Below are positions 3,036-40,550 of a stretch of 64,000 nt of DNA, piece by piece (the first letter of the stretch is position 1; each line of letters begins with the position of its first letter). The DNA comes from a virus (lineage: Duplodnaviria; Heunggongvirae; Uroviricota; Caudoviricetes). The position numbers were made by a program, and so were the translations under genes. Where the stretch lies: positions 138,576-202,575 of the IMG/VR virus record IMGVR_UViG_3300037789_000070; one strand, 5' to 3'. The notes under the pieces are model-generated. The model had not been told where the DNA came from. It was given only the letters and a program-made list of their open reading frames with translations, and ran no database searches.

Positions 3036-3093
3036 TTGAACTGGCGGTTTAAGGTATGATCAATGATCGTAACATTGAACCCAGTTTATTTAA

Positions 3094-4086: not shown

Positions 4087-4092
4087 TTAATC

Positions 4093-6115: not shown

Positions 6116-6127
6116 GCAGAACTTAAG

Positions 6128-16800: not shown

Positions 16801-19800
16801 TGGGAACCACTTCCGGTGATAATGATGTCCATAATGAAACTTTCACCACAGGTAATGCAAAAACAGAACGGGTATATTTCACTACTGGTGTCGGTGAAAC
16901 TACAGTATATGTCAGTATTCGCAACGATGAAAATCAGACAATTTCAATTGATGAAGTAACTGTCCGTAAGACTGGTGTTTGGGAAGCCACAGATGATACT
17001 CGAATAGCAGATGCCATTACGGCTGCTGCTACTGCACAGTCTACTGCTGATGGTAAGATAGAAACATTCTTCACAACTTCTACTCCAACTGCAACCGCAG
17101 TAGGTGATCTTTGGTGGAATACCAATACCAATATAATGAGTCGTTGGAATGGTTCTATATGGGAAACTGCTTCTATTGTAGGAACCAGTCAGCTTACTGA
17201 TGATGCAAAATTAAAAACCAGAATTTTTGCTCAAGATGCAGAACCAACTGCTGACTCTGTTGGAGATATCTGGTTCGATACTGATGACGGTAACAAGACT
17301 TATCGTTGGGGCGGCGCTTCTTGGGTAGCTGTTCAAGATGAATCCATCACTCAAGCTTTAAGTGATGCGGCTGCTGCTCAATCTACCGCAGATAGTAAAG
17401 TAGAATTATTCAAACAAGATGATGAACCATTATCTGGAATGAGTTCCGGTGACATTTGGATTGACACTAATGATGGCAATAAGATCTATACATATGATGG
17501 TGCTGATTGGACTGAAACCTCAGATTCAAGAATTGCACAAGCAATCAATGATGCAGCTACTGCACAGTCTACCGCCGATGGAAAAATTACGGCATTCTTG
17601 GATGAATCGGAACCGACCGCCGAAGGTATAGGAGATTTATGGTTCAAGCCTAGTACCCAAGTAACTAGGAGATGGGATGGTTCTACATGGGAACTTTATT
17701 CTGTAACATTAACATCTAAATTAACCGATGATGCCGGACTTAAAACGCACATTTTCCGTCAAGATACTGCTCCGGCAGAACCCGGCGATACTATCAACAA
17801 TGGTGATTTGTGGATCGATACTGATGACGATAATCATCTTTATTGGTGGGATGGGACACAATGGACCACTGCTAGAGACGAACAAATCCAAGCTGCTTTG
17901 GATGCAGCTTCTACCGCTCAATCTACCGCCGATGGTAAGATTGAAGTCTTTTATGGAAACACTCCACCAATCGGCGGTGTCGAAGGAGACTTATGGTTTG
18001 ATGAAGATGATGGGAATAAACAATATCGCCATAATGGTTCTACTTGGGTAGAATTTGCTGATAGTAGGATTGGTTCTCTCGTTTCAGACTTAACAACTGT
18101 ACAAGGAACTTTGGACGGTAAGGTCAGCTTTTTCTTTGGAGGTTCTACCCCAACTGCAGAAGCTATCGGCGATCTTTGGTATGATGAAGACGATGGGCGT
18201 ATAAGAAGGTGGAACGGTTCTGAATGGATCGTTGTATCAACAAATTCACGACCATATCTTTCTGACACAGAACCTTCTTCACCAACTTATACATTATACG
18301 CGGGCGATCTTTGGTATGATACTGATGATGGAAACAAGCCCTATTATTGGGATGGAACTCAATGGGTATTGATCAGAGATGGTGGAATAACAGAAGCATT
18401 CAATGCTGCTGTTGCTGCTCAGTCTACTGCTGATGGGAAAATTGCCGCCTTCATTCAACCAGCAGAGCCTAATTCTGGAATGGAGGAAGGTGATTTCTGG
18501 TATGATACCGATAATGGAAATCGTGTTTATAGATATGACGGTTCAGATTGGGTGGAAGTATCTGACACTAGAATTTCACAAGCTATTTCTGATGCTGCAA
18601 CAGCACAAGCTACTGCTGATGGCAAAATTGAAACCTTTCTTACAAGTAATAATACCCCACCAGCTTTACCTTCTGAGGGCGATCTTTGGTATGATAGTGG
18701 CACTGAATTATTCAAGAGGTGGAATGGAAGCTCTTGGGAAACGGTCTCTAATAGTTTCTCAAATACCAGCCAATTAGTAGATGATGCTAACTTAGGACAG
18801 ACTGCGCTTTGGGCCTCCGTCACTGGAGCGGATAAACCTGCCGACAACGCCACCAATAGTAAAGTTCTCATCGGTCCAACAGAGCCTGACACTGATCTTC
18901 ATGAAGGAGATATCTGGTATGATAGTAGTGATGGTCAAAAGATGCATCGCTATGATGGCTCTGATTGGATAGAAGTAACAGATGATGGCGCGGCTGCTGG
19001 TCGTGATCTATTGGCTGCGTTGCAGGCTGCTGGTCTGAATCAAAGCGTTGCAGATATTGTTTCAACAAGCAATAGAGCCGCTGAGACTCTTCCATTAACT
19101 GGGGTGAATATTAATGATTGGAGTGAAATCTATGGCGGGGGTGGCCGTCGAGGTATATTCCTCTCTTTTGCAATAGACAGGGACCCAACCAGCCCTACCT
19201 ATAAGAGATGTACTATTGGTCTTTATGGTCGTAACAACCATACTGGTGATGGTAGCGTCGATTTAGAATTAGAAGTCTACAACAATACTATCGATACTTT
19301 CAGTTCCAACACGTTTGATGGTTCGATTACTGAGAAGTCTGGTGGATTGGATTTCACAGAAAGTGGAAACACATTCTGGGGTCCTAATGGATTAGTCACG
19401 TCTCAGTCAATGACCGATGCAGTTGATGACGTTGCTTACTTCACACTAACAAATGCGCCAGATCAATCTACTACATTCAGGCTAAGAGTTAGAGAATTAG
19501 AAACGACAGATACTTCTGGTGTTGCATTTGTAACCCTAGGCGATAAACCAGTGGTAGCTGACGTTCCAACGCCTTTCCAGTTTATCTTCTCCCCATCAGA
19601 CAGTACTGATCTAGATGTTCTAATCATGGCAAATGCTCCTGCCCAAGCGGGAGCTACCAATACTAAATTCTTTAGACAAGATGACGCACCTGTTAATCCG
19701 GGCGCGGATCTTCATGATGGTGATATTTGGGTAGACACAAATGATGGCAACAAACTTTACCGTTGGAGTGGTTCTGATAACGGCGGCACAGATGAATGGC

Positions 19801-22800
19801 AAGTAGTACAAGATGCCGGTGCAGATGCTGGTAGACAGCTATCACAAGCATTAGTAGATCAAGGTCTTGGTCAGAGTATTGCTGATATTGTTGGTACTGC
19901 TAACACCGCTGCTGAATTTACTCCTGTAGCTGGGAATAATGTCAATAACTGGGAAACTGAATTTAGCACATCTGAAAATGCGGCTATTATTAATATCCAT
20001 TTTGATAAGACGAATAAACGTCTATATTTCACACAGAAAACGGTTAACGGACACACTGGCCTTTCAGAACTAGATGTTTCTGTAGAAATTTTTGGCAATC
20101 TAATAAACTCATTTACCAATGTTTCAAAAGGAACAACCATTTCTGATAATGGTGGTGGAATTGATTTTTCTACTGAGAATGAATACGGACCAAATGGTTT
20201 CAGATGGACCGAAAATATTTCAGGTGTTTCGACAGAACAGGCATACTTTACATTAAACGAAACTCCTTCTGAGTTAACAGTGTTTAGTATTAGGGTAACT
20301 AACTGGACTACCGCAGATTCAAATGCAAAAAGAATTCTCGCGTTTGGTGACAGTGCAGTAATTGTCAATCCTAACGGAACCTTTAAGCTACTCGGAACAA
20401 TAGCCGATGGAACCGATCTTGATGTATTGATCATGAAGAATGCTCCGGCCTCTGCTGGTGCAGACGTCACGGCCCCAAGAGCCGCTATAAAAATAAACTA
20501 TGTAGATTATTCGTCAAGTAATTCTGGTGAAGCGTATATTCATGGTTTTGGTTCTGATGGTCAGCCTGCGGATGTTCCGGCTAAAATATTAGTTGGTGGG
20601 TCAGAAGTATCACTCGATCAATTAGCATATAGATCAATCTATACCAGTCAGCCATCAACTGCCGGATATATCATCTTAGATTCCGGACTGAGTAATAAAT
20701 TTGATGTCGAGTTTGGGGGCAATACTCAGGCTAGAAGTGTTGTCTTTGCTAAGAAAGAAAATAGTACTTGGTTTTATGACGATAACGATTCTAATTGGAC
20801 TTCATTTACTCCAACATCTACTGATGTGGTTATTGGTACACTAGTAACGACTAGCGGTGATATAATAGCTTCTGCTGATATTTGGGCCTACCCAATGTCT
20901 CTGGATGTTATTTCGGAGGCTGGTGCCACCAACAGTAAGAATTTTATTTCAACAACTGCACCAGCAAATAATACTACCAACAATCTCCATATAGGTGATA
21001 TATGGATCGATTCTGATGACGGGAATAAACAGTATCGTTGGGATGGTTCTTCTTGGGTTAATGTTCAAGATGCTGGTGCCACTGCTGGTTCCGACCTTAT
21101 CACTGCATTAGAAAATGCCAATCTTGGTCAAGACATTGTTTCATTCGTTACCAGTTCTAATCTTGCAGCAGAAACCCCGCCAATCGGTTCAGTTAATGTT
21201 GTTAGATGGTGGGAGAGTCCATTTGTAGGTTCCGATGAAGGTACTCTATTAAGAGTTAGAGTGAATAAATCCACAAAACAAGTAGAAATACTTCATTCCG
21301 GCTTGACTGGACACACTGGAACTGCGGTTGCAGATATTGAATTTAAAGTTTCTGGAAACACTATTTCTTCGATTGATCAGAATAACGCAGAAGATATCAT
21401 TACCTCTATTCCAGCAGGAATAGATTTCAATACGGAAGATCAATGGGGTCCTAATGGAGTTAGGTGGAAAGAAAGCGTAACTGCTATTGAAAGCGATTCT
21501 ATCATTCTGACTTTAACAAATGCTATCGGTGCAGGAACGATATTCACATTAAGAGTTAGAGAACATTCCGTTGGTTCTGGTTCCTCATTCTTGGCAATGG
21601 GCAGTGAATTAATACTTACTGATTACATCACACCGACACAGTTTGTGTTTAATACCACGGATAGTACGGACCAAGACGTTTTAGTAATGCAGAATGCCCC
21701 TGCTCAAGCGGGAGCTACCAATACTAAAATATTAAAGCAGGACGATGCTCCTGTTCAAGCCACTGATGGTAATGGAAACCGTTATCTTCATGATGGCGAC
21801 TTATGGTTCGACACGGATGATGGGAATATTGTCAGAAGATGGGACGATCCAGATGATGACGGGAACGGTGTATGGCAGTTGGTCAGGGACGAAGGCGCTG
21901 TAATCGGTTCTGAACTTGAAAGCAATCTTTCAAATATTGGTAGAAACATAGCCGATCTTGTTGACGTTACTAAAGCAGAAGCAGCTATTAATGTCGCCGA
22001 TTGGTCTGGTACATTCACCCCAAATGGTGATGGACATAAATTCCATATTAGAGTTTTAAAAAATAGTAAAGAAGTGAGAATTTCTTGGGCAGGGGTAGGA
22101 AGTACATCTGCTTCAAAAACTATTAGAGGCGAGTTTGAAGTCATAGGAAATACTATTTCTTCATTCAATTCAAATACTTTTGATAGTTCGTATCCTGACA
22201 ATGGAACTGTCACCTTCCCTTGGTCAGAAACCGAATACGGAACGAATGGTGTTAATTTTGAAGAAACAACCTCTTCTGGGGAAGATTTATGTATAATCAC
22301 TCTGACCGATGCCATCGATGAAAATACTCAATTCAGATTAGCTATAATATCAGTAGATGATCCGGAAGCGAATGAACATAATTATCTAGTATTTGGTGAT
22401 ACGCCGTTTATTAGAGATATAAATGCACCTATTCAAACTGTTCTTTATACAAGCGATAGTACTGACTATGATGTGTTAGCTATGAAGAACGCACCAGCAG
22501 AAGCCGGTGCTACCAATAGTAAAAACTTTGTTCAAGATGATGCACCAACAAATCCTGCTGATGACATTCATATCGGAGATCTTTGGATTGACACCGATAA
22601 TGGAAACCAAATCAGTAGATGGGATGGCTCTCAATGGACACTTTATAGAGATGCTGGTGCTCAGGCTGGTTCCGACCTATTAAGCCAAATTGACACATTA
22701 GGAATAGACAATAGCCTAGCTGAATTTGTGACAAACATAACAGATTCTTCTAAGAAAATTGACTACTCAGTTGAAAATGTGAATGATTGGTCATCATATT

Positions 22801-25007
22801 ATTCGATGACTAGTAGAGCATCCGTTCTCAGAACAAGAGCTACAAAAAATAATGGCAACTTGTTTGTGTCCTTGGCCGGAACAGGAGGTCATACGGGAAC
22901 CACTACGGTTAAGGGTGAAATAGAAATATTTGGGGATAGTATCAGTGATGTGAATAGTGTCACATTAACTGATACGGATAATGGGGGTAATATCGATTTT
23001 TCTACCGCCTCTCCTGCGGTTGGTAATGTCGTATGGGGTCCCAATGGCCTCCTATTCACGATTGAGATTACTAACGTCACTGATGATGAATTTGTGATCG
23101 AGTTAAATTCTAGTTCTATCACAGAAGATATTAAATTTGCACTAAGAATACGTGAATTTACCGACACAGATACTGATGCTGTTTCTGCTCTGTCATTTGG
23201 TGACAGAACCACTATTATAGAAAATCCAGATAGACCTTTTAATGTCACATTCGGTGTAATCGATTCTTCTGATTATGATGTTTTGGTGATGCAAAACGCT
23301 CCGGCAGAAGCTGGTGCAGACGTCACTGGAAATAATACATCTCAAGACACAGAGAATGTTGGAGGTACGCCTGCGCTGGATGTTGCACAAGGTTCCGGTA
23401 ATAGTTTTGCACATGATTTCGAAACCCTTGAATTGACACTTTGGTCAACCACAGGGTTCACAGTAACCGCATCAACCGGTGACAAATATTCTGGAACCCA
23501 GTCTGCTAAAATCAGTACTAATGGAGCGGACCCAATTTCAGCAACTGAACCTAAGTTGATTATCTCAGATAGTTTCTCTTCACAATTTTCAGAAGAAAAA
23601 GTGAAGGTGTCATTCTGGGAAAAACAAGTATCTGGTGAAGAGCCGAATGGCCAAACACGAGTTCGTTTATTGACCAACTCTTCAATTGATACCGTTGGAA
23701 GTATTTCTTTCACTCCGTCCGCATCATGGACTAAGAGGACCTTTACCGGAACTTTCCCAGTATGGTCTGGAGGTGAGACTGACATCAGGATTTATCCTGA
23801 CTTAGGAGCAATAAACGGAGATACTACTTCTGTTTTGATTGATAGAATTTCTATTGAAACAGTTGCCAAGGAAAGCGATCTTACTGCTACCCTCTTAAAT
23901 GGTGCTGGCGCACTTATTCAACAGACCGTTATTTCTAAGGCTCAGAGTTCTGCCACTTTATCTATATTCAATGGTTCTGATCCGGGCGTATGGAAAACCG
24001 TAGGAGCGTCAGTTGATATTAATTGCACAGGCGATGACCCAGTATCAATCGAAGGTAACTTAGATTTCAATATTACCCAAATAAATGATAATTCAGGATT
24101 TACAAACCAATTATTCAGATCAACAGATGGTAGTTGGTCTGGTGGTTCTGGCTGGTCTTACTCGGGTAACTATGGCGGTGTGTGGTATGGTAACGCTTCT
24201 ACTAATCCGTTATATTTGACAATTGGAGGATTAAATACGTCCCACACATATGCCATTATTATAGATTTTATCTCGTATAACACCAGCACTTTCAGTTCAT
24301 GTACTGTGTCTGCTTCTAATTTTGTATTTAGTCCGGGTTCTCCAGATCAACAAAGTGCTTCACATACTAGTTCTTCTACGAGTTTAACTAAAACGATGAC
24401 TTTTGTAGGAAGACCTACAAGTTCAAGTGTCGTCTTAACTTTCCAAGCTAATACCTATTATGGGTTTATTGAAAAAGTGAGAGTAGTAAGAAGTTATGCA
24501 GGTTCTTTTGGCGCTCCATTATCTGCTCCTCAAGGTGGACCGGGTGGACCGAAGTTGAAATGGAGAATGACTAGAAACGGGACTCCAATTTATGAGAGCA
24601 GTCTCATGCAAGTTAGTGGTGCTGGTCAAGTAGTTTCCCCCCTTGTTACCGTTCTAGATGAAACGCCACCCGCTGGAACTAATACCTATGCGGTCGATAT
24701 GTGGTGGGAAAAGGCTACTTATTCGGGCGGAACCATTCTAGAATATGATGTAGGTTGGGATGAAACTTCTGTCATTGTTGGGAGTGGCACTCAGTGGACA
24801 TCTAATATTGCTCCGGGCTGGAGCATGAACGGTTGGAATGGAATAGTGGCTTCTGTAATTTCTGACACTATGTTGATTTATGACGCTCAGGGGGCTTCGG
24901 GAGAAGGGGGTTCATTTAGTTACACGATGACTGCCGAAACAAATGCATTGGCCATAACTAAAACAAGTCACTCTTTAACGGCAATAGAATATAGGAATGG
25001 AGGATAA
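13887..25007 (+). CDS. giant tail-fibre / host-recognition protein (3706 aa) with nested repeats
   Basis: Uninterrupted 11.1-kb ORF. N-terminus GTVVSAEWLNDVQENIMAIL is the usual fibre N-terminal anchor type. About 18 copies of a ~60-aa repeat (...GDLWFDTDDGNKxYRWNGSxW...AATAQSTADGKI...). Seven ~265-aa super-modules delimited by DVLxMxNAPAxAGA(T/D). G/S/T/N-rich. Confidence 0.85.
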   Translation: MHRIDSEGNVSNQFSAGNESVKGTVVSAEWLNDVQENIMAILSAAGITATKGRSADLLDSINKLISQGAGNDLADIDALRALTGTAATAAVIRVLDSDGSGNADYWFRDPVDESTPDDGSTVIVDVDGNRWRKQITGAWIPYATGETLESLKPAEGGADVTGNNTSANTLLVGSTPAATVESGSLVGNEISTHLSANNFVTSIADLVAQTEESVENVVFNGLNVNNWNSSWSPTDRSVAFNLRVNKATRTLTVRFSGHSGHTGASAIKLEIEVSGNTVASYSNLTANNILSNKGSNVDFAADNNVYGPNGFVWSEGLTNTADDQFNIVLTDTVTNLTSFRIRLVTFSTDDGSAKKYISFGDTPIISNPSIPIQLVVSPDDTSEHDVLLMQNAPADAGATNRKIFTRTSAPSNPGDDLHEGDLWFDTDDGNRQYHWNGSSWVEVRDSGAQAGSDLISNNGITIDPSSLGGVYGGDLVYSDDTSLEDLKPAEGGAQVFTGKSITELTDTTADNISTGSGSVQDIIDGLKLPSNGGFERGTAGSQEIPEAWFRSGFYSTSRTEYYSDSPSDTSFGSQLSYGAENATQNGGSVGWWRIGKKFQAGNTGDTLSISARVKPKTFNVPASISNTPGSTSYFTVSDAYIRIAFFEADGTLISTHNSNSLSQQVYDNGNISLPYNVTDTWIPDALTYSMTVPANTFRVDVWLVAVGSSDALSSLGLETGDGVVKFDDFTWSYTGEMREVSEATWASEPGATHGAEWGTNISGQPNDSDLLNSQQLWSDISGTGKPADNATNTKIFDQTSAPSNPGDDLHEGDIWFDTDDNNHLYRWNGSSWVSLRDGGIAQAINDAATALSSTAAGSLTAYKSPTEPIGRSDGDLWFDTSDGNKLYRYNFSTPQILSGNDRYFSSGIGNWSDTSAGAGGSASVDGVDEELDIVSDGVDYGQATISITTEAETEYELKFDVSGGGNDCSVRVGTTSGDNDVHNETFTTGNAKTERVYFTTGVGETTVYVSIRNDENQTISIDEVTVRKTGVWEATDDTRIADAITAAATAQSTADGKIETFFTTSTPTATAVGDLWWNTNTNIMSRWNGSIWETASIVGTSQLTDDAKLKTRIFAQDAEPTADSVGDIWFDTDDGNKTYRWGGASWVAVQDESITQALSDAAAAQSTADSKVELFKQDDEPLSGMSSGDIWIDTNDGNKIYTYDGADWTETSDSRIAQAINDAATAQSTADGKITAFLDESEPTAEGIGDLWFKPSTQVTRRWDGSTWELYSVTLTSKLTDDAGLKTHIFRQDTAPAEPGDTINNGDLWIDTDDDNHLYWWDGTQWTTARDEQIQAALDAASTAQSTADGKIEVFYGNTPPIGGVEGDLWFDEDDGNKQYRHNGSTWVEFADSRIGSLVSDLTTVQGTLDGKVSFFFGGSTPTAEAIGDLWYDEDDGRIRRWNGSEWIVVSTNSRPYLSDTEPSSPTYTLYAGDLWYDTDDGNKPYYWDGTQWVLIRDGGITEAFNAAVAAQSTADGKIAAFIQPAEPNSGMEEGDFWYDTDNGNRVYRYDGSDWVEVSDTRISQAISDAATAQATADGKIETFLTSNNTPPALPSEGDLWYDSGTELFKRWNGSSWETVSNSFSNTSQLVDDANLGQTALWASVTGADKPADNATNSKVLIGPTEPDTDLHEGDIWYDSSDGQKMHRYDGSDWIEVTDDGAAAGRDLLAALQAAGLNQSVADIVSTSNRAAETLPLTGVNINDWSEIYGGGGRRGIFLSFAIDRDPTSPTYKRCTIGLYGRNNHTGDGSVDLELEVYNNTIDTFSSNTFDGSITEKSGGLDFTESGNTFWGPNGLVTSQSMTDAVDDVAYFTLTNAPDQSTTFRLRVRELETTDTSGVAFVTLGDKPVVADVPTPFQFIFSPSDSTDLDVLIMANAPAQAGATNTKFFRQDDAPVNPGADLHDGDIWVDTNDGNKLYRWSGSDNGGTDEWQVVQDAGADAGRQLSQALVDQGLGQSIADIVGTANTAAEFTPVAGNNVNNWETEFSTSENAAIINIHFDKTNKRLYFTQKTVNGHTGLSELDVSVEIFGNLINSFTNVSKGTTISDNGGGIDFSTENEYGPNGFRWTENISGVSTEQAYFTLNETPSELTVFSIRVTNWTTADSNAKRILAFGDSAVIVNPNGTFKLLGTIADGTDLDVLIMKNAPASAGADVTAPRAAIKINYVDYSSSNSGEAYIHGFGSDGQPADVPAKILVGGSEVSLDQLAYRSIYTSQPSTAGYIILDSGLSNKFDVEFGGNTQARSVVFAKKENSTWFYDDNDSNWTSFTPTSTDVVIGTLVTTSGDIIASADIWAYPMSLDVISEAGATNSKNFISTTAPANNTTNNLHIGDIWIDSDDGNKQYRWDGSSWVNVQDAGATAGSDLITALENANLGQDIVSFVTSSNLAAETPPIGSVNVVRWWESPFVGSDEGTLLRVRVNKSTKQVEILHSGLTGHTGTAVADIEFKVSGNTISSIDQNNAEDIITSIPAGIDFNTEDQWGPNGVRWKESVTAIESDSIILTLTNAIGAGTIFTLRVREHSVGSGSSFLAMGSELILTDYITPTQFVFNTTDSTDQDVLVMQNAPAQAGATNTKILKQDDAPVQATDGNGNRYLHDGDLWFDTDDGNIVRRWDDPDDDGNGVWQLVRDEGAVIGSELESNLSNIGRNIADLVDVTKAEAAINVADWSGTFTPNGDGHKFHIRVLKNSKEVRISWAGVGSTSASKTIRGEFEVIGNTISSFNSNTFDSSYPDNGTVTFPWSETEYGTNGVNFEETTSSGEDLCIITLTDAIDENTQFRLAIISVDDPEANEHNYLVFGDTPFIRDINAPIQTVLYTSDSTDYDVLAMKNAPAEAGATNSKNFVQDDAPTNPADDIHIGDLWIDTDNGNQISRWDGSQWTLYRDAGAQAGSDLLSQIDTLGIDNSLAEFVTNITDSSKKIDYSVENVNDWSSYYSMTSRASVLRTRATKNNGNLFVSLAGTGGHTGTTTVKGEIEIFGDSISDVNSVTLTDTDNGGNIDFSTASPAVGNVVWGPNGLLFTIEITNVTDDEFVIELNSSSITEDIKFALRIREFTDTDTDAVSALSFGDRTTIIENPDRPFNVTFGVIDSSDYDVLVMQNAPAEAGADVTGNNTSQDTENVGGTPALDVAQGSGNSFAHDFETLELTLWSTTGFTVTASTGDKYSGTQSAKISTNGADPISATEPKLIISDSFSSQFSEEKVKVSFWEKQVSGEEPNGQTRVRLLTNSSIDTVGSISFTPSASWTKRTFTGTFPVWSGGETDIRIYPDLGAINGDTTSVLIDRISIETVAKESDLTATLLNGAGALIQQTVISKAQSSATLSIFNGSDPGVWKTVGASVDINCTGDDPVSIEGNLDFNITQINDNSGFTNQLFRSTDGSWSGGSGWSYSGNYGGVWYGNASTNPLYLTIGGLNTSHTYAIIIDFISYNTSTFSSCTVSASNFVFSPGSPDQQSASHTSSSTSLTKTMTFVGRPTSSSVVLTFQANTYYGFIEKVRVVRSYAGSFGAPLSAPQGGPGGPKLKWRMTRNGTPIYESSLMQVSGAGQVVSPLVTVLDETPPAGTNTYAVDMWWEKATYSGGTILEYDVGWDETSVIVGSGTQWTSNIAPGWSMNGWNGIVASVISDTMLIYDAQGASGEGGSFSYTMTAETNALAITKTSHSLTAIEYRNGG
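16270..19000 (+). repeat. dense in-frame array of at least 13 ~60-aa WxDTDDGN-type coding repeats
   Basis: Copies of G-D-(L/I)-W-(F/Y/I)-D-T-D-D-G-N-x-x-Y-R-W-x-G-S-x-W recur about every 180 nt. Confidence 0.75.
19612..23330 (+). repeat. about five ~800-bp (~265-aa) coding super-repeat modules inside the fibre gene
   Basis: Boundary motif GATGT(A/T)TT(G/A)(A/G)T(A/C/G)ATG...GCTCC at about 19612, 20421, 21674, 22469 and 23275, encoding DVL(I/V/A)M(A/K/Q)NAPA. Confidence 0.65.
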
Positions 25008-26373: not shown

Positions 26374-26907
26374 ATGACAGAACAAAGAAATGGCGATTGG
26401 TTACAGACGGCTACTGGTAAATCATTTTGGCCACTAGACCCACGACCGGAAGAAATTTGCATCGAAGATATTGCACATGCACTTTCTCATCAATGTAGAT
26501 TTAACGGACATTGTAATACATTTTACTCTGTTGCGCAGCACTCGATAATAGTATCACGTCATTGTTCTATTGAAAATCGATTGTGGGGACTACTACATGA
26601 TGCAGCAGAAGCATATGTGTGTGATATTCCAAGACCTTTGAAACCTTTTCTAAGTGGCTACAAAGAGATAGAAACGAATATATCAAACGTCATAGCAGAT
26701 CATTTCGGTCTATCACGACAAATGCCCGATGAGGTAAAGAGAATAGACAGTGCTATTCTAGCTGATGAAGCAAATCAAATTATGGCCCCACCACCTCAAG
26801 ATTGGTTTCTACCTGAACCACCACTAAATGTGACAATTTCTCCAGTTGGACCATTAGATGCCAAGTATATGTTTTTGGAAGAATTTCAAAAATTAACCGA
26901 AAATTAA
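26374..26907 (+). CDS. HD-domain phosphohydrolase (YfbR/5'-deoxynucleotidase-like)
   Basis: HALSHQCRF ... VAQHS ... LLHDAAEAYVCDIP gives the H...HD...D metal-ligand pattern. Confidence 0.75.
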   Translation: MTEQRNGDWLQTATGKSFWPLDPRPEEICIEDIAHALSHQCRFNGHCNTFYSVAQHSIIVSRHCSIENRLWGLLHDAAEAYVCDIPRPLKPFLSGYKEIETNISNVIADHFGLSRQMPDEVKRIDSAILADEANQIMAPPPQDWFLPEPPLNVTISPVGPLDAKYMFLEEFQKLTEN

Positions 26908-26915
26908 GGTAAAAA

Positions 26916-27296
26916 ATGTTTATGGAATTTATTACTCTGCTGTTTTTCCTAATCGCAGCACACGGGGTTGCTGACTTTGTTCTACAGAGTCGTGATATGG
27001 CTTATGGTAAAAGTAGAGCCGCAGAAGAAGAGAAGTTAGACTTATCTACGCCCATCGAAAAAACAAGAATTAAAAAAGGAATTCGTTGGTATCATTGGTT
27101 GACTAGTCATGCATTCACTCATGGTGCATTTGTCGGTCTTATCACCGGTAATGTGTTCCTAGGCATCTTTGAGACATTCGCCCATTTTTTAATAGATCAT
27201 TCTAAATGTGAGGGGAAGATAAGTTTTAACACGGATCAAGTCTTACATATTTTGTGCAAAGTGATCTATGCTATGATTATAGTTATAATTTTGTAG
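26916..27296 (+). CDS. His-rich integral membrane protein
   Basis: 3-4 predicted TM segments. Conserved-looking His in HGVADF, SHAFTHG and AHFLIDH. Confidence 0.5.
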   Translation: MFMEFITLLFFLIAAHGVADFVLQSRDMAYGKSRAAEEEKLDLSTPIEKTRIKKGIRWYHWLTSHAFTHGAFVGLITGNVFLGIFETFAHFLIDHSKCEGKISFNTDQVLHILCKVIYAMIIVIIL

Positions 27297-27307
27297 GGGT
27301 ATAATCG

Positions 27308-27628
27308 ATGAGCTATTACATTTGTTGGTGTAGTCAGTTTGAAGAAGGTGATAATCTTCCACCAGAAGACAGCATCAAAATATTAAAAACCGACTTATTT
27401 TTCCCTACAAAACCCAATGATCAGGAAGCAGTAGAAAAAGCTGCATCGATTATGTACTATGATCATGATGGCTGGGATTGGATGGAAAAAACACCTGACC
27501 TTAAATTTGGTGTTTTAAAATACGATGAAAATGATAATCCTGTTGGAGAAATTTCATATTTCGAAATAAACATGGAATACGAAATTGATTTCTTTGCGAG
27601 TGAAATAGGTTGTGAAGAGGATGATTAA
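27308..27628 (+). CDS. hypothetical acidic protein (106 aa)
   Basis: ORF. Confidence 0.5.
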   Translation: MSYYICWCSQFEEGDNLPPEDSIKILKTDLFFPTKPNDQEAVEKAASIMYYDHDGWDWMEKTPDLKFGVLKYDENDNPVGEISYFEINMEYEIDFFASEIGCEEDD

Positions 27629-29030
27629 CTGGACTTCTAATATAAATGAATATGATTTTGATTCTTTAGATTTGAAGTTAAATGTCATTTCGAGGGTCAA
27701 TAAAAATATGATCTTGTTCGAAAGACATAATTTCGAAGGAGATGATATTTTAGCAGGTAGATATTTATTTTCTCATCTTGCACACTTAGAAGATATTGCA
27801 GTTCTAGCAGCACATCGCGGCAACTGCATTGAAAACCAATTGGAAGATGAATTGGTTCATCGCAAAACATTTGAAACTATCGCAGAACATTTCGGCGGGA
27901 TGGTTGAACCATCTTATGAGATAAAACAGATTATGAATTATCTCATGACTTTGACTGGTGAAGATTCTCTGGCTGCATTGAATGTAGTTGCTGAGAATTG
28001 GTTAGAAACAGTTTTCGTCTCTTTGTATAAATCTGGCCTTTGTACTGATATGTTCAAGTTAATTGGCGAAGAAGAAAAACGTCATAGTCATGAAGCATTA
28101 GAACAGGCCAGACCAGATCCTGACGCTTTCAGTGAAATAGTTCAAGACTTAGAAGACATGTTGACAAAAATCTCCATGTCCCCAGAGTTCATGATTCCTC
28201 TCCACTGGTTCATGGGAACTGAGAACATGGCCCTTATGGGTCTCAAGATCGCAGAGAAGCACGAGGAGGCCTGTAAGCATCTTGGGGTACAAGCAGACCT
28301 TCATGCCCTTAAAGTCTCCTCACGCTCCGCTAAGTTCCTTAACAGGACCGCTCCTGTTCCAGTTGAGATGAGTGATTGGGAATATGTCAAGCAACAGACA
28401 TGGGACGATCACGCCCCACAATATTGCTTCATTGAACATGAAGTCAAAGAAACTAATCCTCTGAAACTTCAAGCTAAGCTAATGGAAGCGGCGGCATGTG
28501 TCATGAAGCGACATCCTAGATTTAGGAACGTTTTAAGACGTGGCCAGATTTATCGAACTGATCATCCAGTCATAGGGATGAGAACCCTTTATGATGACGA
28601 ACAGGTTCTAACACTGTACGTCTCTAGACCGGAAAAGAAAGGATGGAAGGGGACCATCCGTAATTTGGCTAAAACCAAACGCAGGGTTAAAGAAAAACCA
28701 TATGAACCTTATCCGGGTGGAGTCAGACTAACGCCGGAATTGAAGAATCTTTTCCCACCAAATAGGTGTTCTCTTGTCGTGACTTATAACGGTGATTGGG
28801 GCGGAGATTTTGGTGTAGGACCGCTTAGCGATATGGAAGGCATACCCTGCAGTCTGACAATAGGCCGAATTCGAGAAATCAAAGACGTAGAAGAAGACGA
28901 ATTCGGTTTAGTGTATATTACTAAAAAGAAAGTGTCTACGTTCTGTTTGATGATGGACCATAGAACTGGTGACGGGAAAGATATCGGTCTGTTTCTAAAA
29001 GAAACATTGAGAGAATTGGACAAACTCTAA
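27612..29030 (+). CDS. two-domain protein: diiron-carboxylate (ferritin/HO-like)-type N-domain fused to E2/CAT-like acyltransferase C-domain
   Basis: N-domain: E(HLEDIA)-x~25-EDELVH and E(NWLETVF)-x~27-EEKRH, i.e. two E...ExxH motifs. C-domain: CLMMDHRTGDGKDIGLFLKETL matches the DHRxxDG catalytic motif of 2-oxoacid dehydrogenase E2 / chloramphenicol acetyltransferase-like transferases. Confidence 0.6.
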   Translation: MKRMINWTSNINEYDFDSLDLKLNVISRVNKNMILFERHNFEGDDILAGRYLFSHLAHLEDIAVLAAHRGNCIENQLEDELVHRKTFETIAEHFGGMVEPSYEIKQIMNYLMTLTGEDSLAALNVVAENWLETVFVSLYKSGLCTDMFKLIGEEEKRHSHEALEQARPDPDAFSEIVQDLEDMLTKISMSPEFMIPLHWFMGTENMALMGLKIAEKHEEACKHLGVQADLHALKVSSRSAKFLNRTAPVPVEMSDWEYVKQQTWDDHAPQYCFIEHEVKETNPLKLQAKLMEAAACVMKRHPRFRNVLRRGQIYRTDHPVIGMRTLYDDEQVLTLYVSRPEKKGWKGTIRNLAKTKRRVKEKPYEPYPGGVRLTPELKNLFPPNRCSLVVTYNGDWGGDFGVGPLSDMEGIPCSLTIGRIREIKDVEEDEFGLVYITKKKVSTFCLMMDHRTGDGKDIGLFLKETLRELDKL

Positions 29031-32576: not shown

Positions 32577-34001
32577 ATGAGTGTTTCCGCGAGTGATTAC
32601 ATTCTAGACATTCAGCGAAGCTATGCGCTTTATACTAATAACGGTCGATACATTCCTAATGCTACCGATGGTTTGAAACGGGCCATGCGTCAGGCTATGG
32701 AAGTTATGTATAGTCATAATGGCAGGTTTAAAACAAGCGCTCTATCCGGTGCAATGCAAGAACGAAATCTGTATCCTCACGGCGATGCATCAGATTCTAT
32801 TTCTTCACTGGCAGCACCTTTTATTAATAATGTTCCTCTTCTAAGGGCACACGGGACATTCGGAACGAAGGTGAATCCTACTGCCTTTGCGGCACCTCGT
32901 TACACTGATGTGGACAAGCCGCCCTATATTAATGATCTTTTTTATCTTGATCGGGACATTCTTCCGCTCAAAGATAATTTTGATGGAAGTCGTAAAGAGC
33001 CTAAGACGTTCCTTCCAATTATTCCCACTCTCCTTGTAAACGGAATGGTTGGTATTGGTACGGGGTGGTCTTGTACAATCCTTCCCCGAAACATTAATGA
33101 TATTTGTGAAGCTGTTATTGATGTTTTGAACGGAAAAAAACCAAAACGTCTTCTTCCAGATTATTCTTGGGCAAAGACCAACTGTGAATTTATCGAATAT
33201 AACGATAAGGGCAATGCAAAATGGCTTTTCATTGGCGAAGTGGAAATGCCAGACACATCTAGTATTCGAGTTACCGAACTTCCTTCGGGATTGTCTTTGG
33301 AAGATTTCAAATCCAAACTTTCTACTATGGAAGAAAATGGAACTATCAAAGATTTTATTGATAATTCATCTAATGAAATTTCAGTAACCATCAAGCTTAA
33401 ACGCGGTCAGTGTAAGGGGTGGTCGAATGCAGATGCTATTGATTTCCTGAACTTGAAAAAAACTCGGACTGAAAACTTCGTCGTGGTCGGATTTGATGGA
33501 GATACTATTACTCCATATGCTTATGATGGAAAGACTGATCCTATCGAACAATACATCAAGGATTGGGTTGAGTGGAGATTCGGTTGGTATACTGATCGGT
33601 ATAATCATCTTAAGAAAGAAACTACTGATGAACTCAACTACCTTCGTCTCCTGTTCGAATGCTATGCTCGTAATCTTCCCATGGTTTTGGGAGATTTAAA
33701 GAACAAGGCCGAACTGAAAGGAATGATTGAGGCGATTGGTAACGAAGCCAAGATTTCTTTTGGGGACCATCATGTTGAAAGGATTTGTAATCGGGCCACC
33801 TATAGCTGGACACGAGACAATTCATTGAAAGTAGTAGAAGATATAAAAGAAAAAGAGAAAGAACTTGACGAATTTAATCTTTTGTTAAATGATGAAAAAA
33901 AGCGCCGTGGTGTTTTTCTCACTGAGGTGAATGCAATTAAGTCTGCGGTTCCAAACATCAAAAAGAGCATCGACACAATTCGCGGCAAGAAAGCAAAATA
34001 A
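32577..34001 (+). CDS. DNA topoisomerase II, DNA-cleavage (GyrA/T4 gp52-like) subunit
   Basis: RYIPNATDGLKRAMRQAMEVMY (GyrA R..P...DGLKP..RR motif) and AAPRYTDV (AAxRYTE active-site Tyr). Confidence 0.85.
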   Translation: MSVSASDYILDIQRSYALYTNNGRYIPNATDGLKRAMRQAMEVMYSHNGRFKTSALSGAMQERNLYPHGDASDSISSLAAPFINNVPLLRAHGTFGTKVNPTAFAAPRYTDVDKPPYINDLFYLDRDILPLKDNFDGSRKEPKTFLPIIPTLLVNGMVGIGTGWSCTILPRNINDICEAVIDVLNGKKPKRLLPDYSWAKTNCEFIEYNDKGNAKWLFIGEVEMPDTSSIRVTELPSGLSLEDFKSKLSTMEENGTIKDFIDNSSNEISVTIKLKRGQCKGWSNADAIDFLNLKKTRTENFVVVGFDGDTITPYAYDGKTDPIEQYIKDWVEWRFGWYTDRYNHLKKETTDELNYLRLLFECYARNLPMVLGDLKNKAELKGMIEAIGNEAKISFGDHHVERICNRATYSWTRDNSLKVVEDIKEKEKELDEFNLLLNDEKKRRGVFLTEVNAIKSAVPNIKKSIDTIRGKKAK

Positions 34002-35929
34002 TGACTACTAAATCCAAAGCATATAGTCAGATTGACGTTCTTAACGATTATAAGTTTTCCCGTATCCGGACTGAAATGTTCTTGGGTAGCCGTGAGGCCA
34101 CGACTGAGACCATGATCTCCTTTGATGATAAGGGAGTGGTTCAGCGCGAGGAAACTTTTGTACCGGCTCTCTATACCTACTGGCGTGAGATTCTGGATAA
34201 CGCGGTAGATGAGGTAATAGGCCATGGTAATGGTAATCGGATTGAAGTCGATTACGATCCGGACACCATGACCTTTTCTGTCTATGATAACGGTCAGGGT
34301 ATCCCCGGAGATAAATTTGAAGTCCTCTTCACCATGACCAAATCAGGTCGTAATTTTGGTGACCGTGGAATTGTTGCTGGTACTAATGGTACTGGTGCTG
34401 CTATCACATGTCTGACTTCAAAAATGTTTAAAGCTGAAAGCTGGCGAGATAATAAACATTCTTCTCAGGAGTTTACCGAAGATCAGGACGGCGATGATAT
34501 GATCCGGGGAGAGCTTAAGGTAAGGCAACTCCGAGGCGTTAATCGTGGGAAGACTGGAACTAAGATTACTTTTTCTCCTAGTACTGATGTTTATGAAGAT
34601 GTGACTCTGCCCATTGAGTTTGTGTCTTCACGTTGTCAGGAAATTGCTGCCGCGTATCCTTCTTTGCGAATGTATTTCAATGGAGTACGAATTGGCGGGG
34701 AACGGACCACCGAAAAAATTCTGTTCGGAGATCTCAAACCTCTGACCATTTCTATTCGCGGTGAAATGAATACTGGTGGCGGCAAGCATCGCGTTCTCAA
34801 GGGTCGTGGCGTTGATCGTAAGGCGGACTTCAAATCAGATTTTTATCTTCTGCCCAATTTTTGTGAAGAAGGTGAAGCGTTCCATTCTCTTGTGAACGGC
34901 ATTGCTGCATACCGTGGCGGTAGTCAAATGGATGCTTTCCGTCGAAGCTTCTATAAGCTTGCAATCGAAGCTCTTAGTACAGAGGCCCGAAAGCGCAAAC
35001 TAGACAAGAGCCTTGACCGTAAAGATATCATGGAAGGCCTGTTGATCTATAACGTCACTATTATGCCTGCACCAAACTTCGATACCCAAAATAAGCAGAA
35101 GCTTGTTTCAAAGGATGCTGAAAAAATCATTTCTGAATCAATCACGCTGGCAGAAGTGAAGAAGATTTTCCGAGCTAATCCTGAATGGGTGAAGCAGATT
35201 CTTGACAACTGTGAAAAGCGGGTCGGGAATCAGGGTCTGAAAGACGCAATGCGCGAAAGTAAGAAAGCTATCAAGAAGCGGGTAGCTAAGCTTAAGGATG
35301 CAAATGGCCGGTCTCGAAGCAAATGTATTTTGTTTCTAGCGGAAGGAGACTCTGCTATTGAAGGTATGAACAATCTTCGTAACCCTGAAATTCATGGCGG
35401 TCTGCCTCTCCGTGGTAAAGTGATGAACGTGAACGGCGTCAATCCTGCTAAGGTGGTTAAGTCAGACCCTCTTCTAGACATCATGAATGCAGTGGGATTG
35501 CAGATCGGTCAGAAAGCCGTTCCCTCTGATCTTCGTTATGGAAAAATCTACATCGCAACAGATGAAGATGAAGATGGCGGAAATATTACTGCACTAATTG
35601 TTAATTTTCTATATACCTTTTGGCCGGAACTATTTGACAAGAAAAAACCAATGGTATATAAGTTTGAAACTCCGTTTATCATTTTGATTAAGGGCGGTAA
35701 ACGGAATTATATCTTCGGCAAAGACTATGCAAAATTTAATCCTTCTGATTGGAAGGGTTGGGACATTGTTAGAGCCAAGGGCGTTGGTCGCCTTGAACAG
35801 GAAGATTGGAAAAACATGTTGGATTCTCCTTCTCTAATTCCAATCGTTGATGACGGCCATCTAGAAGAAGCGTTGGACTTGATGTTCAACGGAGACCTCG
35901 CAGATGAGAGAAAAGGATGGCTATCATGA
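34001..35929 (+). CDS. DNA topoisomerase II, ATPase plus Toprim (GyrB/T4 gp39+gp60-like, unsplit) subunit
   Basis: GHKL motifs ILDNAVDE, DNGQGIP and GTNGTGAA. Toprim LFLAEGDSA and IATDEDEDGGNI. Confidence 0.85.
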   Translation: MTTKSKAYSQIDVLNDYKFSRIRTEMFLGSREATTETMISFDDKGVVQREETFVPALYTYWREILDNAVDEVIGHGNGNRIEVDYDPDTMTFSVYDNGQGIPGDKFEVLFTMTKSGRNFGDRGIVAGTNGTGAAITCLTSKMFKAESWRDNKHSSQEFTEDQDGDDMIRGELKVRQLRGVNRGKTGTKITFSPSTDVYEDVTLPIEFVSSRCQEIAAAYPSLRMYFNGVRIGGERTTEKILFGDLKPLTISIRGEMNTGGGKHRVLKGRGVDRKADFKSDFYLLPNFCEEGEAFHSLVNGIAAYRGGSQMDAFRRSFYKLAIEALSTEARKRKLDKSLDRKDIMEGLLIYNVTIMPAPNFDTQNKQKLVSKDAEKIISESITLAEVKKIFRANPEWVKQILDNCEKRVGNQGLKDAMRESKKAIKKRVAKLKDANGRSRSKCILFLAEGDSAIEGMNNLRNPEIHGGLPLRGKVMNVNGVNPAKVVKSDPLLDIMNAVGLQIGQKAVPSDLRYGKIYIATDEDEDGGNITALIVNFLYTFWPELFDKKKPMVYKFETPFIILIKGGKRNYIFGKDYAKFNPSDWKGWDIVRAKGVGRLEQEDWKNMLDSPSLIPIVDDGHLEEALDLMFNGDLADERKGWLS

Positions 35930-39296: not shown

Positions 39297-39320
39297 ACAT
39301 GAATGAAAGTAAGGAAACCC

Positions 39321-40550
39321 ATGAACACCGCATTAAAAATTGATTTTCCAGAACTTCATTCAGAAGAATTGAAGTGTCTGTTCGATGCATTCACATCGAA
39401 TGGTCATAAAGTTTTCTTGGTGGGTGGCTCTGTCCGAAACGCTCTTCTTGGAAGGCCGGTTTCCGATCTTGATATCACGGTCGATTGTCCCCCCGATATC
39501 AGTACTATTGTTCTTGAGGCAGCAGGGTTTGAAGTAATTCCTGTTGGTTTTGATCACGGGACTGTTGTTGCCATTTTGAATGGACAAAGCTTTGAAGTCA
39601 CGACATTTCGTAAGGACGTAGAAACTGACGGACGTCATGCTAAAGTCATCTTTACTGATGATATTGTTGAAGATGCTAAGCGTCGAGACTTAACTATCAA
39701 TGCCCTCTATGCAGATATCGAAGGAAATGTTTTTGACCCTCTCGGCAATATCGGTGACATTGAGGGGCCAGTCGTTCGTTTTATTGGCGTTCCTAGTGAA
39801 CGCATCACCGAAGATTTTTTGCGAATTCTTCGTTTTTTCAGGTTCTCAAGCACCTACACATCTTCTGTTGATTCAGAAGGATTGGAAGCCTGTGTTCGAA
39901 ATAAGGTGGGACTAAAAAGTCTTTCAATAGAGCGTATCCGGGATGAAATTATCAAAATCATTCCAACTAATAACGCTCCTAATATTTTTCATATTATGAA
40001 ACATAATGGAATTCTGGATTTTATTTCAGGATTGAACTTTGATGTAGACCGCTTTGAACGTGCGGTCCAGCGACTTGGTGTCGAGGATGTCGATTTCCTT
40101 GTTTCGTTGATCCTGTTTCATGAAAAGAATAGTTTTGATTCTATTGAGAAATTCAAACTTCCGAATAAAATCAAGAATCGAATCAGTACTTTGGTACACC
40201 TGTCTCCAATAGAAGTTTCTACCTCTACAGGCATGAAGAAAATTCGTAGCTTGATTTTTCATTATGGGAAGGAAGAAATCTTAGATATTCTTAAGCTTAA
40301 GATTGCAGATTGTGATGAAGCAGAGGTGGATCTTTTTAAAGAGGTTTTGACAAATGCTTCGGCAGTTTCCCTTCCGAATAATCCATTAACTGGTAAGGAA
40401 CTTATTAAACGCGGGTTCAAGCCCGGAGTTCTTTTTAAAGACATCAAGAATATTTTCGATGAACTTTGGGAAGAAGCAGACTTCACAACAGACCCAGTGG
40501 AGTTGGATGAACTGATTTCGTCTGCGGTATCTAAGGTCCAGAATTCTTAA
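39321..40550 (+). CDS. tRNA nucleotidyltransferase (CCA-adding enzyme) / poly(A) polymerase-family head domain
   Basis: KVFLVGGSVRNALLGRPVSDLDITV is the GG(S/A)VRD-LLG....D.D head-domain signature, followed by RRDLTINALY. ATG at 39321 preceded by AAGGA. Track start 39303 is probably too early. Confidence 0.85.
   Translation: MNTALKIDFPELHSEELKCLFDAFTSNGHKVFLVGGSVRNALLGRPVSDLDITVDCPPDISTIVLEAAGFEVIPVGFDHGTVVAILNGQSFEVTTFRKDVETDGRHAKVIFTDDIVEDAKRRDLTINALYADIEGNVFDPLGNIGDIEGPVVRFIGVPSERITEDFLRILRFFRFSSTYTSSVDSEGLEACVRNKVGLKSLSIERIRDEIIKIIPTNNAPNIFHIMKHNGILDFISGLNFDVDRFERAVQRLGVEDVDFLVSLILFHEKNSFDSIEKFKLPNKIKNRISTLVHLSPIEVSTSTGMKKIRSLIFHYGKEEILDILKLKIADCDEAEVDLFKEVLTNASAVSLPNNPLTGKELIKRGFKPGVLFKDIKNIFDELWEEADFTTDPVELDELISSAVSKVQNS

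Follow-up and report, generated by a model that had tools for sequence, protein, structure and literature searches.

A gene in the tightly packed run behind a giant tail-fibre gene of the window (the whole 64,000-nucleotide stretch of jumbo-phage DNA analysed here) encodes a soluble two-domain protein, which we call C0. The N-terminal domain is a ferritin-like helical bundle of the aldehyde-deformylating-oxygenase (ADO)/R2lox/PaaAC type with a predicted dimetal site. The C-terminal domain has the chloramphenicol-acetyltransferase (CAT)/E2 fold, with an invariant histidine, His450, in a DHRxxDG motif. C0 belongs to a single uncharacterised family with one clade in phages and one in bacteria. 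Each fold is familiar by itself; their fusion as an enzyme family is, as far as we have tested, described nowhere in curated libraries or in the searchable literature.

Results

The focal gene and its product

The coordinates of the gene, of its domains and of its neighbours are collected in Table 1. A 469-aa JGI gene call (P0001), which is otherwise the identical protein, begins at the ATG at 27621. Because this ATG overlaps the stop codon of the upstream gene, as ATGATTAA, it is the likelier start, and the true C0 is likely to be 469 aa long. No signal peptide or membrane segment is evident in the sequence. The AF2 model of C0 (pLDDT 90.5, pTM 0.88) contains both of the expected folds, and both domains are under constraint. 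The full conservation of the two active sites is consistent with a catalytically competent protein, as judged from the alignments.

Table 1. Position of the focal gene, its predicted domains and motifs, and its neighbours in the window
Feature	Coordinates	Strand	Remarks
Giant fibre protein, 3706 aa	13887..25007	+	heads the tightly packed + strand run; stop overlaps C1 start
C1, 151 aa	25007..25462	+	C-terminal Ig/FN3/PKD-like beta-sandwich
C3, 221 aa	25703..26368	+	coiled-coil-like by sequence
Focal gene C0	27612..29030	+	472 aa from GTG; putative diiron-oxidase/E2-like acyltransferase fusion
Ferritin-like (ADO/R2lox-type) diiron-carboxylate domain, N-terminal, predicted	27741..28286	+	residues ~44-225
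First ligand block, E60 ... E80-x-x-H83	27789..27860	+	translation EDIAVLAAHRGNCIENQLEDELVH
Second ligand block, E128 ... E155-x-x-H158	27993..28085	+	translation ENWLETVF...GEEEKRH
CAT/E2-fold acyltransferase catalytic domain, C-terminal	28347..29027	+	residues ~246-472
Catalytic motif D449-H450-R451-T-G-D454-G455 (E2-type DHRxxDG)	28956..28976	+	DHRTGDG, residues 449-455

A small family with two clades

We found 43 full-length homologs of C0 in all. They are 407-500 aa long, mostly cover more than 85% of the query, and are only 30-75% identical. The family is small, with 104 clusters among 1.84 billion representatives. Pfam, PHROG and NCBIfam have no model for the whole protein or for its N-domain, and no PADLOC family matches C0. 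Searching 50,697 GenBank phage records with tblastn gave zero matches, so that no cultured phage among them has the gene. When one genome per species was searched, across 185,579 species, the sole match was a 7.7-kb Myxococcales MAG contig. As C1 is also present on this contig, it is probably phage DNA. The literature yielded nothing relevant on the family or on the fusion, which agrees with the preliminary description, where the combination was taken to be undescribed. The 'ferritin-like' phage proteins of two papers are Dps-type DNA-binding proteins.

The preliminary description had called for a search for homologous fusions in other phages. Phage homologs were found, together with a bacterial clade from Legionellales and other bacteria, and thus the fusion is not phage-specific. 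At 18% identity in the profile alignment, the two clades are far apart; hhalign joined them with a probability of 100% and an E value of 7.5e-58 over 427 columns that span both domains. In the bacterial clade the metal ligands are invariant or nearly so, and the DHR motif is the same. The Legionella pneumophila homolog, P0117 (600 aa), is conserved across the many isolates that were sampled. NCBI and UniRef name the bacterial homologs '2-oxo acid dehydrogenase subunit E2', and P0117 also 'putative CoA-dependent acyltransferase'. Compared with C0, P0117 and its relatives are ~130-230 residues longer, with a C-terminal tail, and they are chromosomal, outside any phage context; neither C1, C3 nor a fibre gene was found in the bacterial-clade loci.

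The neighbours of the bacterial genes differ from those of the phage genes. A squalene-synthase-like gene directly adjoins the homolog in L. pneumophila and in bacterial locus L021, and an octaprenyl-PP-synthase-like gene adjoins it in L. quinlivanii. Such squalene-synthase-like or polyprenyl-synthase neighbours occur in only three of the four bacterial contexts, and one of them may be a mere housekeeping ispB. No lipid or isoprenoid genes were found in any phage-clade locus. The two clades could differ in substrate.

The predicted N-terminal diiron domain

C0 has two ExxH sites and no more, E80-L-V-H83 and E155-K-R-H158, each preceded by a further glutamate. As 17% of shuffles of the C0 protein gave the same double E...ExxH geometry, the motifs alone are weak evidence. 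The observation is nevertheless real because of the conservation and the fold. Each of E80, H83, E128, E155 and H158 is present in 43/43 homologs, and E60 is kept in all 42 homologs that cover its column. Further invariant residues of this domain are Q76, D79, N124, W130, R157, E181, H217 and C221. Residues 1-40 are variable among the homologs and have low model confidence. Thus, the diiron-carboxylate character that the preliminary description gave to the N-terminal half is borne out by a predicted dimetal helical bundle, by six invariant ligands and by ExxH motifs that persist among the homologs. Its spacing of E-x(25-28)-E fits the second ligand pair, with 26 residues between E128 and E155, but fails for the first, with only 19 between E60 and E80.

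The structural matches of this domain, over 175-206 residues, are to catalytic ferritin-like enzymes, from which we infer that it is an oxidase, not an iron store. Its identity to ADO, R2lox, PaaA/PaaC, VlmB-like proteins and the hydroxylases of bacterial multicomponent monooxygenases is only ~10%. Compared with ADO and related diiron oxidases, C0 has the shorter first ligand spacing and the extra invariant residues. To our knowledge, none of these relatives is fused to an acyltransferase. MiaE-, Coq7- or AurF-type enzymes and heme-oxygenase-like oxidases, which had been proposed as kin of this domain, did not prove to be its nearest relatives. Membership by sequence of the cyanobacterial ADO family was also rejected, as there was no Pfam or PDB sequence match: the N-domain family profile found zero matches among PDB sequences, and single-sequence phmmer of C0 against PDB gave a chance match only. 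Diiron oxygenases normally need a reductant partner; no gene for such a partner is evident near C0.

The C-terminal acyltransferase domain

The assignment of the C-terminal half to the E2/CAT-like acyltransferases stood up to both fold and alignment. Foldseek matched E2 cores at an E value of 1.5e-10, and the family profile matched E2 domains in PDB at 5.5e-6. Within the catalytic motif, D449 and H450 are present in 43/43 homologs, R451 in 42/43, D454 in 41/43 and G455 in 40/43. A DHRxxDG motif appeared in 0.03% of C0 protein shuffles. The column of T391, which is roughly aligned with the region of the E2 catalytic serine, holds serine in 17 homologs, asparagine in 14 and threonine in 12. CAT itself was rejected as the closest relative: it is structurally farther away than the E2 cores, and the motif is of the E2 type.

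Matches to the E2 core family of Pfam, PF00198, are uneven. Among the 43 family members, 16 match at E values up to 0.1 (best 1.5e-9), and the window protein, at 18.3 bits, falls below the gathering cut-off of 23. All 10 of the bacterial-clade proteins tested match, at 23.0-54.5 bits. The profile alignments stop at position 235 of 242 for 1b5s and 239 of 256 for 3mae; by these alignments the family seems to lack the last ~7-17 residues of E2. In E2 proteins the C-terminal 'knob' joins trimers into 24- or 60-mers.

The phage cassette

In the window the gene order is fibre, C1, C3 and then C0, which is the last gene of a three-gene cassette. Between 13887 and 29030, neighbouring genes overlap or lie 5-12 nt apart. 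Because the cassette is packed head-to-tail behind the fibre gene, C0 is presumably a late product, made alongside the tail-fibre proteins. A scan for promoters and terminators gave counts close to shuffle expectation and was thus uninformative.

The same arrangement recurs elsewhere. C1 was found in 15 of the 17 distinct phage loci and C3, by means of an HMM, in 13 of them. Both genes are on the strand of C0, within ~2 kb of it in most loci and directly 3' of a giant fibre or gpJ gene, and this placement is common to jumbo-phage-like contigs and lambda-like prophages. In loci L002, L004 and L006 the giant protein encoded ahead of the cassette is homologous to the window fibre. In lambda-like siphoviruses, gpJ takes the place of the giant host-recognition fibre: the counterpart in the lambda-like prophage L024 is a gpJ that carries FNIII-A_GpJ and Phage-tail_3 domains and is encoded after TMP, gpL and gpK. 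The cassette is not tied to one fibre repeat, as the repeat GDxWxDTDDGN..W is present only in the window and in one relative. Nor is C0 part of a lysis cassette: holin and endolysin genes lie behind it in L018 and L017, but in L002 and L024 the genes behind it are more tail genes.

C1 resembles FN3 domains found in gpJ and in tail-tip proteins. Since it is a generic Ig/FN3 sandwich that lacks any conserved lysine motif, a lipoyl-like or carrier domain was ruled out. The sequence of C3 suggests a coiled coil, and PHROGs returned only weak matches of unknown function for it. Both the Ig-like C1 and the coiled-coil-like C3 have the look of virion parts, which a structural or fibre-directed role fits at least as well as a receptor-directed role.

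Discussion

We propose that C0 couples an O2-dependent oxidation with acyl transfer on a lipid-like substrate in a process tied to host recognition. In the version we prefer, for which we would claim somewhat less than an even chance, a receptor-bearing lipid is modified. The nearest folds and the isoprenoid-gene neighbours of the bacterial homologs are suggestive of a lipid-like substrate. Long-chain fatty aldehydes or acids are ligands of ADO and R2lox, and an acyl-CoA is a ligand of PaaAC. Because C0 travels with the fibre gene, its product most likely serves host recognition. The dimetal domain would activate O2 and oxidise a hydrophobic acyl or prenyl chain by hydroxylation, desaturation or cleavage. 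The E2-like domain, probably a trimer, would use His450 as a general base in an acyl transfer. One partner in this transfer would be a CoA or carrier thioester; the other would be a hydroxyl, thiol or amine, either on the same molecule or on one linked to it. The target in the infected cell may be a receptor-bearing envelope lipid or glycolipid, or a lipid-linked precursor. As a result, progeny and superinfecting phage would not be wasted on infected cells and debris.

The cassette also brings to mind roles directed at the virion itself. C0 might be a fibre-maturation enzyme, which would hydroxylate and/or acylate the fibre, C1 or C3 in the cytoplasm, or help in fibre assembly. The strict synteny with a fibre gene and two small structural-looking proteins across very different phages favours such a role, and the tightly packed genes, whose stops and starts overlap, are in keeping with co-expression with the fibre. 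The logic would be analogous to that of the glycosyltransferases encoded beside structural genes in some phages. However, the cassette follows diverse fibres with no repeat in common, the bacterial clade keeps both active sites without fibre, C1 or C3, and none of the E2/CAT-fold or ADO-like proteins among the structural neighbours is one that modifies proteins. We give this explanation perhaps one chance in a few. It is also conceivable, but unlikely, that C0 is itself a virion component, an E2-like trimer that bears diiron domains on the tail tip or fibre, with C3 as a shaft and C1 as an Ig-like adaptor, and that serves as a head which binds or modifies the receptor. Like fibres, the catalytic domains of E2 form obligate trimers; C0 lies within tail modules, in two cases with more tail genes behind it, and C1 has its likeness to tail-tip FN3 domains. 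Against this, C0 has no recognisable N-terminal tail-attachment domain, and its bacterial homologs are encoded by chromosomal genes. Moreover, the extracellular space offers neither acyl-CoA nor a reductant for O2 activation, although both domains have kept their catalytic residues without exception.

Two further explanations take one of the domains at its family name. If C0 were an iron-handling or scaffold protein, the ferritin-like domain would store or oxidise iron and the E2-like domain would serve as an oligomerisation core only. The ferritin-like fold does carry ferroxidase-type ligands, and E2 cores self-assemble as scaffolds; even so, we regard this explanation as very improbable. We think it least probable of all that C0 is an E2 subunit, whether genuine or a mimic, that joins the pyruvate or 2-oxoglutarate dehydrogenase complexes of the host and rewires metabolism. 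Like the E2 core, the C-domain has the CAT-like fold and the DHRxxDG motif, and the database names of the bacterial homologs say the same. Unlike E2 subunits, C0 has no lipoyl/biotinyl or E3_binding Pfam match, and thus neither lipoyl nor E1/E3-binding domains; it has the diiron domain at its N-terminus instead, lies in phage tail modules and seems to be shorter at the C-terminus, the part through which E2 trimers contact each other. Neither E1 nor E3 genes were found in the 17 distinct phage loci or in the 4 bacterial loci. The NCBIfam E2 equivalogs score only 15-25 bits with the bacterial homologs, against cut-offs of 429-722, and leave the window protein unmatched; its sub-threshold PF00198 score points the same way.

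Modification of a receptor-bearing lipid would have parallels in genomic logic. Genes that mask or modify receptors are found beside fibre genes in other phages: Cor in T1/phi80/N15-type phages, Llp in T5, and O-antigen acetylase or glucosylation genes next to tailspike genes. The likeness to C0 would lie in that logic only, an accessory that travels with a receptor-binding gene. These known proteins are lipoproteins or membrane enzymes with no sequence or fold relation to C0, whereas C0 is a soluble two-domain putative metalloenzyme.

More broadly, the family may represent a class of bifunctional metalloenzymes that combine dimetal O2 oxidation with CoA-dependent acyl transfer on an acyl or prenyl lipid. 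In phages, its members would be fibre accessories that rewrite an envelope lipid or the fibre, and the same chemistry would operate in Legionella. We put this forward tentatively, as a possibility that is doubtful as a whole. As presumed new relatives of ADO and R2lox among the soluble diiron oxidases, these proteins are of interest for lipid and hydrocarbon biocatalysis. The L. pneumophila homolog, paired with its squalene-synthase-like gene, offers a genetically tractable route to the substrate. The link to a fibre gene across jumbo phages and lambda-like prophages probably points to adsorption, host range, superinfection exclusion or fibre maturation, all of which matter for phage ecology and phage therapy. 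If the broader reading of the family is true, C0 would be part of an enzymatic layer of host recognition or superinfection control that has not been known in phages before.

The fusion protein in phage and bacterial genomes

The product of the focal gene, C0, contains exactly two ExxH sites (E80-LV-H83 and E155-KR-H158), and its C-terminal end reads ...MMDHRTGDGKDIGLFL..., in which DHRTGDG occupies residues 449-455. JGI calls the identical protein (P0001, 469 aa, on a 327,992-bp contig) from ATG 27621. This codon overlaps the stop of the ORF upstream as ATGATTAA and is therefore a likelier start than GTG 27612. The partner carboxylates are E60, separated from E80 by 19 residues, and E128, separated from E155 by 26; thus, the E-x(25-28)-E spacing that the preliminary description gave to both pairs holds for the second pair, but not for the first. 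Shuffles of the protein produced a comparable double E...ExxH arrangement in 17% of cases and DHRxxDG in 0.03%. Taken alone, the ExxH motifs are weak evidence.

From 5.8 billion clustered proteins we collected 43 homologs of 407-500 aa, most of them near full length and 31-75% identical to C0 (100% in its own cluster). Only one has a functional label, 'chloramphenicol O-acetyltransferase'. Residues E80, H83, E128, E155, H158, D449 and H450 are each present in 43/43 aligned homologs, and E60 in all 42 that cover its column. The E2-type motif residues R451 (42/43), D454 (41/43) and G455 (40/43) are nearly as constant, as is C221 (42/43), and Q76, D79, N124, W130, R157, E181, H217, R309, R324 and E409 are also invariant. 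Columns conserved at ≥90% number 42/182 in the N-terminal half and 16/207 in the C-terminal half. The alignment indicates that constraint acts on both halves, and more strongly on the N-terminal one.

A confident AlphaFold2 model with the homolog alignment as input (pLDDT 90.5, pTM 0.88) predicts eight helices as far as residue ~245 and an alpha/beta domain after them. Foldseek matched the model to E2 cores (E 1.5e-10), and the family profile matched E2 catalytic domains among PDB sequences (E 5.5e-6, profile positions 216-440). Pfam PF00198 was matched by 16/43 family members, the window protein falling below threshold (18.3 bits vs 23). The N-domain profile found zero relatives among PDB sequences, and C0 had no match in PHROGs, NCBIfam or PADLOC and no homolog among the cultured phages in INPHARED. 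Judged from the model, the N-domain is ADO/R2lox-like, with a complete, invariant dimetal-type site in a predicted oxygenase-type ferritin-like fold. In the C-domain, which has a CAT fold, the catalytic His/Asp motif of the E2 type is invariant; this domain is E2-like, yet not an E2 subunit. A dimetal-type N-domain joined to an E2/CAT-like acyltransferase domain was what had been read from the motifs. The predicted helical bundle, with its six ligands and both ExxH motifs conserved across homologs, agrees with the first half of this reading, and the Foldseek and profile matches and the constant D449 and H450 with the second. The observation is confirmed and, at the level of sequence and model, its interpretation is supported with refinement.

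C0 is not a true E2 subunit: it has neither a lipoyl nor a peripheral-subunit-binding domain. The C0 loci examined contained no E1 or E3 genes, and the NCBIfam E2 equivalogs gave the window protein no score. Unlike E2, the C0 family stops ~7-17 residues short of the E2 C-termini, which are the site of inter-trimer docking.

The N-domain profile recovered only 104 proteins from 1.84 billion cluster representatives (E up to 1e-3), mostly 400-490-aa fusions resembling C0. A distant, bacterial subgroup of ~530-700 aa has the same N-domain plus a C-terminal tail, retains the DHR motif as well as the metal ligands, and matched PF00198 in 10/10 tested proteins. In hhalign, the C0 group and this subgroup aligned over 427 columns across both domains (probability 100%, E 7.5e-58). 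Because the homologous bacterial clade spans both domains, the diiron-type/E2-like fusion is old and not phage-specific; it had been described as a phage fusion, and it is present in phages, but not restricted to them. The subgroup includes a 600-aa chromosomal protein of L. pneumophila with 117 near-identical cluster members, named in databases '2-oxo acid dehydrogenase subunit E2' or 'putative CoA-dependent acyltransferase'. Its relatives occur in Tatlockia, in further Legionella species and in Legionellales MAGs, and other members of the subgroup look myxobacterial by composition. We found no description of the fusion family, phage or bacterial, in the literature searched. With PHROGs, NCBIfam and PADLOC also giving no account, the combination does appear undescribed, and the family is uncharacterised in phages and bacteria alike.

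The L. pneumophila homolog ends in a stop that overlaps the start of a gene from the squalene/phytoene-synthase family, and a metagenomic relative (L021) shows this pairing as well. A 1073-aa ankyrin-repeat protein is encoded just downstream of the L. pneumophila pair. An L. quinlivanii paralog is separated by 10 nt from a polyprenyl-diphosphate synthase gene upstream of it (best match, octaprenyl-PP synthase), and a fourth bacterial context has no squalene- or polyprenyl-synthase neighbour. The squalene-synthase-like neighbours are divergent (79-96 bits vs a model cut-off of 287). As such genes adjoin the bacterial homologs, isoprenoid or other lipid chemistry is suggested for this clade, but only suggested.

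Linkage to the tail fibre

We compared 17 distinct phage-clade loci, drawn from the window, metagenomic and IMG/VR contigs and the ends of prophages, with partner genes identified by ORF clustering and iterated HMMs. The Ig-like C1 (~150 aa) is present in 15/17 and the coiled-coil-like C3 (~110-250 aa) in 13/17. Both are on C0's strand without exception and, in most loci, <~2 kb from it, right behind a giant gene. In a lambda-like prophage (L024) the order is tape-measure, gpM-like, Phage_tail_L, NlpC/P60, a 2064-aa protein with FNIII-A_GpJ and Phage-tail_3 domains, C1, C3 and C0; the giant gene in lambda-like prophages is unmistakably gpJ. Another lambda-like prophage (L018) has DUF1833, NlpC/P60, a 2159-aa protein, a pair of small ORFs of which the second is C3, then C0, holin and endolysin. 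Two loci have the order fibre, C0, C1, C3. Linkage of C0 to the host-recognition fibre gene is fixed.

The fibres ahead of the cassette are diverse, and the repeat of the window fibre (18 HMM-detected copies) recurs in one relative only. That fibre has no Pfam match, and the only PHROGs it matches (phrog_33754, phrog_25191) are of unknown function. In the window, all genes between 13887 and 29030 either overlap or have gaps of 5-12 nt, an arrangement suggestive of a single late transcription unit. No phosphatase or DUF3307 gene was called between C3 and C0 in other Pfam-annotated loci, and the window's pair looks like a moron-type insertion in the cassette.

Additional features are included in the table. 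Because the 2751-aa protein has several tail-fibre matches, the phage encodes two or more very large proteins of fibre type in the window. By the topoisomerase identities, the 328-kb source contig belongs with the jumbo myoviruses. The seven ORFs in the lowest-GC part show only faint pairwise similarity (best E 1e-4), possibly as a very divergent array of paralogs. No tRNA genes were found within the 64-kb window.

Features of the window and of compared loci
Feature	Position	Strand	Remarks
Seven consecutive ORFs	192-7048	+	306-349 aa; 32% GC vs ~40% elsewhere
Giant fibre protein	13887-25007	+	3706 aa; ~45-aa repeat centred on GDxWxDTDDGNxxYxWxGxxW
C1	25007-25462	+
C3	25703-26368	+
HD-domain dNMP phosphatase and DUF3307 membrane protein	26374-27296	+	between C3 and C0; deoxyribonucleoside 5'-monophosphate; phrog_318, E 1e-71; phrog_2470
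C0	27612-29030	+	472 aa from GTG
Split type II topoisomerase	32577-35929	+	474-aa ORF DNA_topoisoIV-type (as in phage locus L001), 642-aa ORF GyrB-like; large subunit 43% identical to those of Agrobacterium phage Atu_ph07 and Sinorhizobium phage Phosso, ~39% to Rak2/121Q-like jumbo phages
tRNA nucleotidyltransferase	39303-40550	+	CCA-adding enzyme; phrog_2244
Giant protein	40981-49236	-	2751 aa; phrog_7049, 7389, 19602, 972
GNAT-toxin/TacA-antitoxin pair	L018, 10680-11509	-	between the holin following C0 and endolysin
600-aa homolog and squalene-synthase-like gene	L014, 8001-10840		L. pneumophila chromosome CP174235.1; translational coupling; related contexts in L021, L022

A model for C0 function

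Based on family knowledge, we propose that the N-domain would bind Fe2 or Mn/Fe and activate O2. ADO acts on fatty aldehydes, R2lox holds a bound fatty acid and PaaAC acts on acyl-CoA thioesters; we take enzymes of these types to be its nearest structural relatives. The C-domain would probably be trimeric, with active sites at subunit interfaces, and His450 would serve in acyl transfer from a thioester of CoA or of a carrier. As these relatives handle long hydrophobic chains or acyl-CoA and the C-domain would transfer acyl groups, the two domains may couple oxidation to acyl transfer, acting on a lipid-like molecule. However, no reductase partner is evident beside C0.

C0 probably has a role in host recognition, because it travels with the fibre gene. 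We rank first, tentatively, receptor masking, in which C0 modifies a receptor-bearing envelope lipid or glycolipid, or a lipid-linked precursor, in the infected cell. Somewhat less probable is that C0 is a covalent maturation enzyme for the fibre or its partners, and we are doubtful that it forms, with C3 and C1, an enzymatic or adhesive head mounted on the virion. A ferritin-like and E2-like protein might instead serve as iron storage or a scaffold, or hijack host 2-oxoacid dehydrogenase complexes; we consider each of these unlikely.

In sum, two results are new. One is the conserved cassette of fibre, C1, C3 and C0; the other is a sister clade in bacteria, whose members include a Legionella gene that is widely conserved and adjoins a squalene-synthase-like gene. 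Substrates may differ between the phage and bacterial clades, and the L. pneumophila pair may represent an isoprenoid-modifying operon of Legionella that has so far gone unrecognised.
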